DNA of 38,850 nucleotides from Planctomycetota bacterium (GTDB lineage: Bacteria > Planctomycetota > Planctomycetia > Pirellulales > Lacipirellulaceae). Made by a program: the position numbers and the translations under genes. The notes beneath the pieces were generated by a model. That model was not told the DNA's origin. It did no database searches and saw nothing but the letters and a program-made list of their open reading frames with translations. The DNA lies in NCBI GenBank assembly GCA_039190745.1, contig JBCCXZ010000036.1, positions 1 through 38,850 of the forward strand, in the 5' to 3' direction. The number at the start of each line of letters is the position of its first letter. Position 1 is the first letter of the stretch. Positions 3,163 to 9,382 of this stretch are shown piece by piece.

Positions 3163-3717
3163 CTACGAGGCGAGCGCGAGGAAGACCGATGCGGTCGTGA
3201 GCGTGAGGATTAGCTCGCGAAGGCTAAACTGCCAAATGCTTAATGCGTAATTGGCCTTGCGGTAACGGACATACCAGACAACAGGCAGTATGAAAGCCAG
3301 CAGCGTGGGAAGCCATGGCCGAACAGCGATCACATAGTTGTAGTCGCCGTCTCCCTTGGACCAGCTCTTGGCAGAAAAGCCCGGTGGATCCGGCGCCATG
3401 AACCTGGTGTTGTCCTCACCAAGAAAAGTAAAAGTCCATCCCTCGCGATAACCGAAGGTCTCGCGAGTCCGTTGCAAGCTACCGTACTTCTTGAAGTACT
3501 CCGCCGTCAGTGGCCAGTAGTGCATGCGTAATCGGAGCGTGTTGGAGTACCAACTGAGGCCCACAAAGCGGGTACGGACTTCGTTCGTCTCGGGCCAGGT
3601 CACACTCCGGATGTGGATCTTCTCGGAGTGACAAAGGCTCCGGGCCCACAGCGCTGCCAGCACAAGGAACGCGACCAAAGAAACTGCCGACGCCACGTTC
3701 AACAGCCTTACCCACAT
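3163..3717 (-). CDS. Hypothetical membrane protein
   Basis: 184 aa with N- and C-terminal hydrophobic helices. Ends in QFSLRELILTLT, a motif common in planctomycete proteins. Visibly lower GC than flanks. Confidence 0.7.
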   Translation of the reverse strand: MWVRLLNVASAVSLVAFLVLAALWARSLCHSEKIHIRSVTWPETNEVRTRFVGLSWYSNTLRLRMHYWPLTAEYFKKYGSLQRTRETFGYREGWTFTFLGEDNTRFMAPDPPGFSAKSWSKGDGDYNYVIAVRPWLPTLLAFILPVVWYVRYRKANYALSIWQFSLRELILTLTTASVFLALAS

Positions 3718-4581: not shown

Positions 4582-5433
4582 ATGTCGAAAGACGGCAAGA
4601 AAGCCAAGAAGTCGAAGAAAGACTCGCCCGGCAAACCCAGCGGGAAGGACCGCCCGAAGCTGAAGAACAAGCAGTACGAGAAGGAGCTCGAAAAACTGCA
4701 AGTCGAGCTGGTCCGGCTCCAGGCCTGGGTCAAGCACACGGGCGCCCGCATCGTGGTGGTGTTCGAGGGCCGCGACGCGGCCGGCAAGGGCGGCATCATC
4801 AAGCGGATCACTGGCCGGGTGAGCCCCCGCGTGTTCCGGGTGGTGGCGCTGCCCGCCCCCAGCGACCGCCAGAAGTCCCAGATGTACTACCAGCGGTACA
4901 TCGAGCACCTGCCCGCCGCGGGCGAGATCGTGATCTTCGACCGCAGCTGGTACAACCGGGCCGGCGTCGAGAAGGTGCTCGGCTTCTGCGACGACCGCCA
5001 GCACGAGAAGTTCCTGCAGGGCTGCGACCGGTTCGAGGGCGCACTGGTCGACGACGGCATGCTGCTGATCAAGTACTGGGTGTCGGTGAGCGCCGAGGAG
5101 CAGCGCCGCCGCTTCCGGGCCCGCGTCGAAGACCCGCTGCGGCAGTGGAAGCTCAGCCCGACCGACCTCTACTCGGTGAGCAAGTGGTACGAGTACTCGA
5201 TCGCCCGCGACACGATGATGCTGGCGACCGACACCGACTTCGCCCCGTGGCACATCGTGCGGTCGGACGACAAGAAGCGTGCCCGCCTGAACTGCATCCG
5301 CCACCTGCTGAGCTGCATCCCCTACGAAGACGTGCCGGTCGACGAGGTGGAGATCCCCGAGCGCGAGACGACGCTTGAGTACGACGACGTCGCGTCGCTG
5401 TCGCGGCGGCGGTTTATTCCTGAGCACTACTGA
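4582..5433 (+). CDS. ppk2: Polyphosphate kinase 2
   Basis: FEGRDAAGKGG (Walker A), IFDRSWYNRAGVE and QWKLSPTD motifs; GGAG before ATG 4582. Confidence 0.97.
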   Translation: MSKDGKKAKKSKKDSPGKPSGKDRPKLKNKQYEKELEKLQVELVRLQAWVKHTGARIVVVFEGRDAAGKGGIIKRITGRVSPRVFRVVALPAPSDRQKSQMYYQRYIEHLPAAGEIVIFDRSWYNRAGVEKVLGFCDDRQHEKFLQGCDRFEGALVDDGMLLIKYWVSVSAEEQRRRFRARVEDPLRQWKLSPTDLYSVSKWYEYSIARDTMMLATDTDFAPWHIVRSDDKKRARLNCIRHLLSCIPYEDVPVDEVEIPERETTLEYDDVASLSRRRFIPEHY

Positions 5434-5609
5434 TCGGTGTCGGTCACAGGCCGTGGTCCTCTGCCCGGATCATTTCGCTCCGGACGATACACGACGATAC
5501 ACCTGGACACTAGCCGCCAGAGAATCGAGCTCAGAGTGAAGCGGGGCAAAATGGCCCCGGCTGTCAAGTAACCGCGCGCCACATTCCGGTAAGAAATCCG
5601 GAAAGTCGA

Positions 5610-5637
5610 TTGACAACCGCCCCCTCACCCGTATCTT
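5610..5637 (+). promoter_or_regulatory. Sigma70-type promoter (sense leader)
   Basis: TTGACA (5610-5615), 16-bp spacer, TATCTT (5632-5637). Confidence 0.65.
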
Positions 5638-5648
5638 ATGCCTAACGC

Positions 5649-5689
5649 AAAAACCCCGCCGAGCGCGGGTTCGCTCTCGACGGGGGTTT
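5649..5689 (-). terminator. Intrinsic terminator (minus strand)
   Basis: Minus strand AAACCCCCGTCGAG...CTCGGCGGGG followed by TTTTT. One pair is G-U on minus but C/A on plus. Confidence 0.65.
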
Positions 5690-5758
5690 GTGTGATTGCC
5701 GGCGGCTGGTACCCGGCGGCGATCGAGTCACAGGACCGTGTTTAGTCTCCTGCGATGG
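5649..5758 (-). ncRNA. Candidate ~110-nt antisense sRNA with three stem-loops
   Basis: Lies between the minus-strand promoter at 5765-5792 and the terminator at 5649-5689. Hairpins at 5728-5755, 5694-5724 and 5651-5689. Ends are approximate. Confidence 0.55.
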
Positions 5759-5764
5759 ATGCAA

Positions 5765-5792
5765 ATTCTAGCCAGCCCCTTAGCGGCGTCAA
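5765..5792 (-). promoter_or_regulatory. Sigma70-type promoter (antisense)
   Basis: Minus strand TTGACG (5792-5787), 16-bp spacer, TAGAAT (5770-5765). Confidence 0.65.
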
Positions 5793-5823
5793 CTAGCATT
5801 TAGTCCGGAATCAGACATTCACG

Positions 5824-5862
5824 GCCCTCCTCCTGATCGTTCAGGAGACGAGGGCTTTTTTT
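5824..5862 (+). terminator. Intrinsic terminator/attenuator
   Basis: GCCCTC-CTCCTGA-tcgt-TCAGGAG-ac-GAGGGC followed by T7. Confidence 0.8.
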
Positions 5863-6008
5863 GTGCCAATAGACCCAAAAAACTGGCCGCCTGCGAGTGC
5901 TGGCAAGTCACCCCGCAGGCGGCCCGATGTGCAGGCCCTACCTCGTGCCTCGAGAGGGAGATAAGCCTGCTGTTGCGTCGGGGCTAACCCAGTTATCTGA
6001 GGTGGTCC

Positions 6009-6143
6009 ATGAAGACCATCGACGAACTGGGGCGTGCATTTGTGTTCGTCCGGAGCTACTGGCGTCGTCCCGCCTACAGCTTCGGGCGAGGCCCAAAGAC
6101 TGAGCACGTCATCCAGCACGTCAGGCGACTACCGCGTCGCTAA
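6009..6143 (+). CDS. 44-aa Arg-rich small protein (below ORF-track cutoff)
   Basis: MKTIDELGRAFVFVRSYWRRPAYSFGRGPKTEHVIQHVRRLPRR*. GAGGT at 5999-6003 sits 5 nt before ATG; a strong hairpin follows. Confidence 0.6.
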   Translation: MKTIDELGRAFVFVRSYWRRPAYSFGRGPKTEHVIQHVRRLPRR

Positions 6144-6185
6144 CCTGGCCTAGTTGCCCGGCCGGCAGCCGATCTGCCGATTGCT

Positions 6186-6225
6186 GGCCTCGGGCGGTTG
6201 CAGCCGCCCGGGGCCTCTCTCGTTT
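6186..6225 (+). terminator. Terminator-like hairpin after the small ORF
   Basis: GGCCTCGGGCGGTT/AGCCGCCCGGGGCC stem, then TCTCTCGTTT (imperfect U tract). Confidence 0.55.
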
Positions 6226-6481
6226 AACTCTGTGTTTAATCGCCAACAGGCCAGTAGACGCAGTGGGGCGTCCATTTGCAAGTAATTCGATCAAACTCTC
6301 GGGCGAATACTAATCGGACTCCAGTTTGCGGAAAAGACCAGCAACCGCAGATATGGTTCCATGAAATCTTGCGGTTTTGTGCAGGAAATGCTGTCGCAGC
6401 AGGTTATCAGCGGACTCAGCGACTGAAGCGGTATAGGGCAAGAACGTTGCCGTCCTCCAGACACTCTAACCTCAAATTTCG

Positions 6482-9382
<2,901 letters not shown>

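Follow-up and report, generated by a model that had tools for sequence, protein, structure and literature searches.

In a planctomycete genome, the leader ahead of a short gene for an Arg-rich peptide raises the question of how one of its hairpins (5728-5755) relates to an intrinsic terminator downstream (5823-5863) and to an antisense RNA predicted to cover the hairpin; positions are those of the window, the whole 38,850-nt stretch of DNA that was analysed. The original prediction held that both arms of the hairpin can invade the terminator, and that antisense binding masks the anti-terminator and causes termination, its loss permitting read-through. We assign a probability of about 0.5 to the reading that the cassette is an antisense-RNA-controlled transcription attenuator, similar to that of pT181, in the leader of the peptide gene. 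The masking idea is consistent with the promoters, the folding series and two of the four testable homologues; its both-arms version is not supported. Within the attenuator reading it is most likely that only one of the two pairings, the 8/9 match that had been ranked second, does the work, and that it does so as part of a longer helix.

Predicted promoters, terminators and RNAs of the cassette

The cassette comprises the following features.

5434..6481, strand not assigned: variable insert between ppk2 and uvrA, from GC comparison, same-site comparison with G098 (a genome of the same genus) and contig comparison
5610..5637, plus strand: sense sigma70-like promoter, TTGACA-16-TATCTT; start site placed near 5644
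5644..5863, plus strand: leader RNA, ~220 nt when terminated, predicted ends; folds better than shuffles (z -4.2)
5647..5690, minus strand: terminator of the antisense RNA, a hairpin and U tract ending near 5647; doubles as the first hairpin of the sense leader
5647..5758, minus strand: 112-nt cis-antisense RNA, a prediction, with three hairpins (z -3.6); start placed from the promoter
5694..5724, plus strand: second hairpin of the leader, with its mirror image in the antisense RNA
5728..5755, plus strand: sensing hairpin; 12-nt loop 5736-5747 open in the early transcript
5732..5762, plus strand: anti-terminator strand after refolding; 5732-5740 with 5820-5828 (or slipped to 5828-5831), 5743-5762 with 5796-5817
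5745..5752, plus strand: GTCTCCTG, which forms the 3' arm of the sensing hairpin and later pairs with 5805-5816; its perfect match to 5842-5849 goes unused
5765..5792, minus strand: antisense sigma70-like promoter, TTGACG-16-TAGAAT
5823..5863, plus strand: intrinsic terminator (attenuator); upper stem 5830-36/5841-47, lower stem 5823-29/5850-56, U tract 5856-5862
5863..5964, plus strand: possible 33-aa leader ORF, its GAGG inside the terminator 3' arm; not conserved as protein
5876..5924, minus strand: second terminator-like hairpin, between attenuator and peptide gene
6009..6143, plus strand: 44-aa Arg-rich ORF with a GAGGT ribosome site; unnamed family, predicted beta-hairpin
6186..6224, plus strand: terminator-like hairpin closing the read-through transcript (~580 nt)

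The two promoters form the sole convergent pair in the 3.89-Mb genome in which both score at least 9.5 bits and lie 100-300 nt apart, as scored with a hand-entered sigma70 weight table. Both RNAs would be expected from them. Both arms of the sensing hairpin lie under the predicted antisense RNA (5758->5647), as had been proposed, and the 5' hairpin of the antisense RNA has a 12-nt loop complementary to loop 5736-5747. The 112-nt antisense RNA stops 250 nt short of the 44-aa ORF and overlaps neither the ORF nor its ribosome site. The attenuator terminator lies ~65 nt past the sense/antisense overlap; its hairpin (5823-5856, -23.3 kcal/mol) was absent from an automatic terminator scan because of its bulge. 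Searches of the window against Rfam gave 0 matches at gathering score, and a match to RNAI (E 9.7) was rejected as noise. A short ORF directly follows the attenuator in three loci (window 5863-5964, L047 1621 and L051 2830, encoding 33, 24 and 16 aa, respectively); two of the three have strong ribosome sites, and the only shared residues are those encoded by the second hairpin.

Predicted refolding of the leader hairpin in the window and in homologous loci

The two complementarities underlying the original prediction are present in the leader. GTCTCCTG (5745-5752) and CAGGAGAC (5842-5849) are perfect reverse complements, and AGGACCGTG (5732-5740) matches CACGGCCCT (5820-5828) at 8/9 positions, with an A-C mismatch at 5735/5825. 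The bare matches do not rise above chance: among 1,000 leader shuffles, the terminator was matched at 8/8 positions in 9.4% and at 8/9 in 37%, and the stem base was matched at 8/9 in 15%. Folding of growing transcripts separated the pairings, as 5732-5740:5820-5828 forms and 5745-5752:5842-5849 does not. This series consists of equilibrium folds of nested structures. The 5728-5755 hairpin, itself borne out with P 0.95-0.99 in transcripts ending at 5760-5800, persists to ~5816 (P 0.99 at 5800) with its loop largely open. From 5824 it is replaced by a long helix of 5732-5762 with 5796-5828, and CCGUG:CACGG has P 0.98-1.00 from 5824 to 5854; keeping just loop 5736-5747 single-stranded abolishes this pairing. 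AGGA slippage into CCT repeats can additionally cover part of the upper 5' arm of the terminator (mean P 0.56 at 5840). The antisense effect predicted here is modest, as even in the leader without antisense the lower terminator stem closes once 5854 is transcribed (P 0.98).

On these grounds the following sequence of events is proposed. Transcription from 5644 would first fold the 5728-5755 hairpin with its 12-nt loop open. Were the antisense RNA to catch this loop, a loop-loop contact could extend to a full duplex during synthesis of the following 60-70 nt, and the trapped strand would leave the terminator to close freely near 5863, giving the 220-nt product. If the loop is not caught, the hairpin would refold to 5732-5762:5796-5828, holding the base of the terminator 5' arm; this anti-terminator helix would cut the stem-closure gain from -9.1 to -5.7 kcal/mol, and part of the polymerases could then read through to the peptide gene, giving the 580-nt product.

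The computed effect of masking the antisense-covered part of the leader is the converse shift, from -5.7 to -9.1 kcal/mol, a switch energy of 3.4 kcal/mol. This value was equalled in 12/143 dinucleotide shuffles and is thus not significant for the window alone; in a control set, 6/89 other terminator-like hairpins of the genome reached 3.4 kcal/mol and 1/89 did so on both measures. Computed mutations behaved in a compensatory manner: the stem-closure gain was -5.7 kcal/mol for the wild type, -9.3 and -9.5 kcal/mol for the single changes at 5738-5740 and 5820-5822, and -5.6 kcal/mol for the double. At equilibrium the terminator is favoured with or without antisense, by 4.8 kcal/mol over the forced anti-terminator. 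The modelling of the window's own switch is suggestive only, and any such switch would by necessity be kinetic and partial; the attenuator is probably leaky because the terminator wins at equilibrium either way.

The arrangement most likely works like the pT181/pIP501-type systems, by analogy rather than as a member of that plasmid family. In the descriptions drawn on here, pT181 repC (RNAI/II; PMC4878617, PMC3753616) and pIP501 repR (RNAIII; PMC4981023) are turned off on binding of a cis-antisense RNA from a convergent promoter, and the sensing hairpin contains an anti-terminator that, in the absence of antisense binding, ties up the 5' side of an intrinsic terminator (PMC4878617, PMC3753616, PMC4981023). 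The window likewise has a predicted convergent-promoter cis-antisense RNA over the leader, with its own terminator, and an intrinsic terminator (5823-5863) between the leader and the regulated gene. An anti-terminator in the sensing hairpin forms in the nascent folds of the window, at a level matched by some of the shuffles and control hairpins, in the numbers noted above; it is strong in two homologous loci (L046 and L051) and not in two others (L042 and L047). The window differs from the plasmid systems in that its gene encodes a 44-aa peptide and not a replication initiator, there being no Rep gene or plasmid match, in the lack of an Rfam match and in its planctomycete host.

Six homologous loci were retained (L015, L042, L043, L046, L047 and L051), among which L015/L043 and L047/L051 are related pairs. 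L015 was the only one kept from a search that gave weak matches in 36 other genomes. Out-of-frame chance matches (L044, L045 and L048-L050), repeats or noise (P0007 and P0008) and duplicates of L015 and L051 (L053 and L064) were left out. The layout is shared. In 7/7 loci, the window included, the promoter-like site that scores best among the 700 nt upstream belongs to the minus strand and faces a minus-strand hairpin 53-121 nt on, predicting an RNA of 53-121 nt. The number of shuffles equalling this promoter (n = 500) was 3 in the window, 2 in L015, 151 in L042, 6 in L043, 41 in L046, 0 in L047 and 47 in L051, so that the scores are individually weak in L042, L046 and L051. A clear sense terminator lies 159-233 nt ahead of the conserved RRP motif in five loci. 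None was clear in L015 and L043, and a search for a ribosome-site switch in these two was negative. L015 contains a 17-nt inverted repeat (94%) linking the antisense-covered region (1027-1043) to a site (1225-1241) upstream of an AGGAGG box; it is weaker in L043, and no switch of the box was predicted. Multi-locus leader DNA alignments were uninformative; the leaders are not alignable across groups and therefore provide no base-pair covariation for the window's helix. Rfam searches of the six homologous loci returned tRNAs only.

Switch energies were computed for five of the seven loci, two of them kin, with start sites and blocked intervals chosen by the analyst. L046 gave 6.7 kcal/mol (reached by 0/200 shuffles) and L051 2.0 kcal/mol (1/77), while L042 (0.9 kcal/mol, 18/107) and L047 (0.0 kcal/mol, 61/131) showed no clear switch; Fisher's combined p was 0.002 for the five loci and 0.003 without the window. 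In L046 a 7-bp anti-terminator (566-572:637-643), in which GGCCUUG is 566-572, occupies the terminator base with P 0.99 and lies ~19-25 nt inside the antisense 5' end, compared with 18-26 nt in the window. The L051 seed target (see below) itself pairs across the terminator base. For L047, alternative start sites or blocking of the seed alone gave no gain, which appeared only when a second, weaker site (1557-1563) was also blocked, a post hoc choice. A conserved GGTCGTTT box, at 1499-1505 in L047 and ~2711-2717 in L051, can pair with the terminator base, and in the L051 folds this pairing forms once the seed target has been blocked.

It is conceivable, though rather unlikely, that the terminator is not switched at all, closing constitutively with a fixed leak or being bypassed by a protein antiterminator, and that the antisense RNA acts through transcriptional interference of the convergent promoters and decay of the leader duplex. 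The terminator is favoured at equilibrium in all five loci folded, the effect in the window falls only within the top 7-9% of controls, and interference is documented for the convergent icsA/RnaG (PMC2879508) and pIP501 (PMC4981023) promoters. The Gram-negative Shigella RnaG/icsA system, as outlined there, combines such interference with antisense-induced intrinsic termination in a leader with convergent promoters (PMC2879508); it differs from the window in that its terminator lies within the early mRNA (+78 to +105) rather than ~65 nt beyond the overlap, and its target is a large virulence gene. Against an unswitched terminator stand the switch energy of L046, matched by none of its shuffles, and the small RNA of L047 and L051, which lies upstream of the putative sense promoter and has a duplicated seed target, neither of which interference would need.

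In the attenuator reading, these last two loci are of particular weight. Their predicted 53-63-nt RNA is placed upstream of the putative sense promoter, and antisense nucleotides 3-13 (L047) and 3-14 (L051) perfectly match a second copy of their target, 169 nt and 173 nt farther downstream, respectively, and partly in a hairpin loop. Such a duplicated seed target occurred in 1/1000 shuffles of L047 and 0/1000 of L051 (p about 0.001), and the two seed sequences are unrelated. The duplicated seed is, at the level of sequence, the strongest apparent sign of selected antisense pairing. A separate RNA with a duplicated target is a further difference from pT181/pIP501. It recalls the target boxes that P4 CI and P1 C4 have elsewhere in the leader; L047 and L051 have 11-12 nt, the longest downstream match to the antisense is 7 nt in the window, and L042 and L043 have no 7-nt match. 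Phage P4 CI RNA (seqA/seqC) is a prophage RNA that controls premature termination via short complementary leader sites, as summarised in PMC4825925. Short terminated and long read-through forms, predicted for the present cassette, are shared with P4 CI and Gifsy-1 IsrK. CI, in contrast, is processed from the sense transcript, where 7/7 loci here have an opposite-strand promoter and terminator, and IsrK, as presented in PMC4825925, activates rather than represses. The cassette has no Rfam match.

If the attenuator reading is true, mobile elements of planctomycetes would add a set of attenuators that have unrelated seeds, control an undescribed family of peptides, include cis and trans antisense versions side by side and offer a compact, directly testable switch (220 vs 580 nt). 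Natural antisense-triggered attenuators comprise few systems in the account consulted (PMC2879508), namely the pT181 and pIP501 plasmids, RnaG/icsA and a proposed repABC case, and PMC3753616 and PMC4878617 describe antisense attenuators as wanted orthogonal parts. The literature searched (mostly open papers, outside candidate-RNA tables such as the supplements of PMC10690425) yielded no description of the cassette or the peptide, and none of planctomycete prophage regulation.

The Arg-rich peptide and its transcript

The 44-aa ORF carries a coding signature. Across six loci, mismatches fall on codon positions 1, 2 and 3 in the numbers 130, 94 and 276, and different codons are used at 186 of 280 identical residues. 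The family consensus is VFVRSYWRRPPYSYGxGxKTVxVxxHxRR. An initial search gave eight matches, of which seven were other proteins and five of those true members; a later search gave 10 proteins. The family is rare: its profile was found in 1/400 other genomes of the host's order, 0/119 of its taxonomic family and 0/400 of its phylum. Pfam, NCBIfam and PHROGs hold no family for the peptide, tblastn against a phage collection gave no match, and Foldseek found none in the PDB or viral models at E 0.001; the best ESM Atlas score, 0.80, is a lead only. The AlphaFold2 model is a beta-hairpin with strands 11-19 and 32-40 (mean pLDDT 75, pTM 0.35). That the peptide binds nucleic acid is a guess from its charge. 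In L015, L046 and L051 the ORF contains an internal 60-nt direct repeat that corresponds to a duplicated VxVxx(Y/H)xRR motif, which forms both strands of the predicted hairpin.

A bolder extension of the attenuator reading, which we consider quite unlikely, is that the cassette gives prophage-like elements of planctomycetes an immunity switch made of RNA only. A small RNA made constitutively would shut the attenuator that heads a peptide-integrase operon, and the family would range from cis-antisense RNAs (window, L042 and L046) to small RNAs that stand alone and have a duplicated seed target of 11-12 nt (L047 and L051), the 33-44-aa Arg-rich beta-hairpin serving as an RNA-binding feedback factor, a miniature N/Tat-like antiterminator.

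Several loci have a second minus-strand terminator just before the peptide gene, at 5876-5924 in the window and near 1656 in L047, 2862 in L051, 2848 in L043 and 1332 in L015; in L015 and L043 it is the only hairpin at that place. In the same five loci minus-strand promoter-like sites with raw scores of 7.3-11.1 bits lie past the ORF. With these sequence features, the ORF may be overlapped by a second antisense RNA about 300-430 nt in length. In L042 an 87-nt tRNA-like gene (ARAGORN: tRNA-Ile, anticodon TAT; 3168-3254) lies right after the peptide ORF, below the Rfam gathering score, and its homologue in L046 (about 936-1023) was called by neither ARAGORN nor Rfam.

A small ORF, a cis-antisense RNA and a mobile context are shared with type I toxin-antitoxin modules. 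We regard it as improbable that the cassette is such a module, with a toxic peptide controlled mainly by a second antisense RNA reaching over the ORF to 5876-5924 and the attenuator minor. The minus-strand terminators between attenuator and ORF in 5/7 loci, the promoter-like sites after the ORF in those five and the mobile setting are consistent with it; the main 112-nt antisense RNA, which ends well before the ORF and is clear of its ribosome site, argues the other way. Typical type I toxins are small hydrophobic membrane helices. The present peptide, which has no family match, is basic and Arg-rich, with two beta strands in the model rather than a hydrophobic membrane helix.

The perfect match and the genomic setting

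The remaining pairing, the perfect 8-bp match that was to let the 3' arm of the leader hairpin also invade the terminator, found no place in the folds: 5745-5752:5842-5849 has P <= 0.01 at all transcript lengths tried, and forcing it costs 8.2 kcal/mol (at 5850) and 11.5 kcal/mol (at 5856) above the free ensemble. Instead, 5745-5756 pairs with 5803-5816, lengthening the anti-terminator helix. As 5745-5752 pairs elsewhere, changing 5745-52/5842-49 would mostly damage the terminator and the sensing hairpin. The leader 5' arm and the terminator 3' arm share CAGGA, at 5731-35 and 5842-46, respectively, and AGGAC (5732-36) resembles AGGGC (5851-55). The leader 5' arm thus appears to be a mimic of the terminator 3' arm, and 5/8 bases of the perfect match arise because CAGGA recurs and the leader hairpin is symmetrical.

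The pairing crosses the 5732-5740:5820-5828 helix, and the two can coexist only as a pseudoknot. It is very unlikely that the original prediction holds in that full form, 5745-52:5842-49 clamping the freed 3' arm on top of 5732-40:5820-28. Before the pseudoknot loop cost the double structure comes to -0.9 kcal/mol (5850) and +3.4 kcal/mol (5856) relative to the free ensemble, which together with the perfect match speaks for it. Pseudoknot loops cost several kcal/mol on top, which counts against it. So do its near absence from the nested folds, the chance level of the match with its five by-product bases and the prior claim on 5745-5752 of a partner that emerges 30 nt sooner. Moreover, the competitor pairs on the 5' side of the terminator when L042, L046 and L051 are folded.

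The attenuator cassette is best read as belonging to prophage-like elements, with the copy in the window an isolated remnant. Integrase genes follow in L047 and L051, methyltransferase and portal genes surround L042, L015 and L043 adjoin tRNA-Lys, and L046 is a 1.3-kb contig; L015 is also preceded by an integrase-like fragment, labelled by eye. No integrase or phage gene adjoins the cassette in the window. It was not found in 119 other genomes of the family, where two matches to region 5560-6260 were rejected as chance similarity in coding DNA. The same region gave no match in a plasmid search and, short chance matches apart, has no DNA homologue elsewhere in its own genome. That the cassette is a decayed relic, prophage-region leftovers in which both pairings are chance matches among GC-rich hairpins, is highly improbable: the chance-level matches, the missing phage genes and the absence from related genomes would fit, yet two near-consensus promoters, every terminator and an open ORF with its ribosome site remain intact, homologous loci repeat the layout, and the ORF mismatches are mostly at third codon positions.

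The insert of ~1 kb has a GC content of 0.58 vs 0.65 genome-wide and lies between ppk2 (plus strand, ending at 5433) and uvrA (minus strand, 3' end at 6482). G098 has unrelated DNA at this site, and contigs from one sample jump across 5431-6488, leaving the cassette uncovered, with a 116-nt go-back in uvrA. A look through sequencing runs listed none of RNA that contains the cassette. The planctomycete host is inferred from protein content: PF07596, a family expanded in planctomycetes, has 41 matches in this genome and none in 14 control genomes. The ppk2/uvrA site is a cargo hotspot, and the 3' end of uvrA acts as a site of integration. Within the insert, a 22-nt direct repeat (86%; 6021-6042 and 6257-6278) places a degenerate copy of the peptide ORF start downstream, within a minus-strand promoter-like site. 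In G098 (L059, 1501-1619 and 2507 onward) the uvrA 3' end is duplicated over 119 bp around two short minus-strand genes, which by eye resemble a PIN-type toxin-antitoxin pair.
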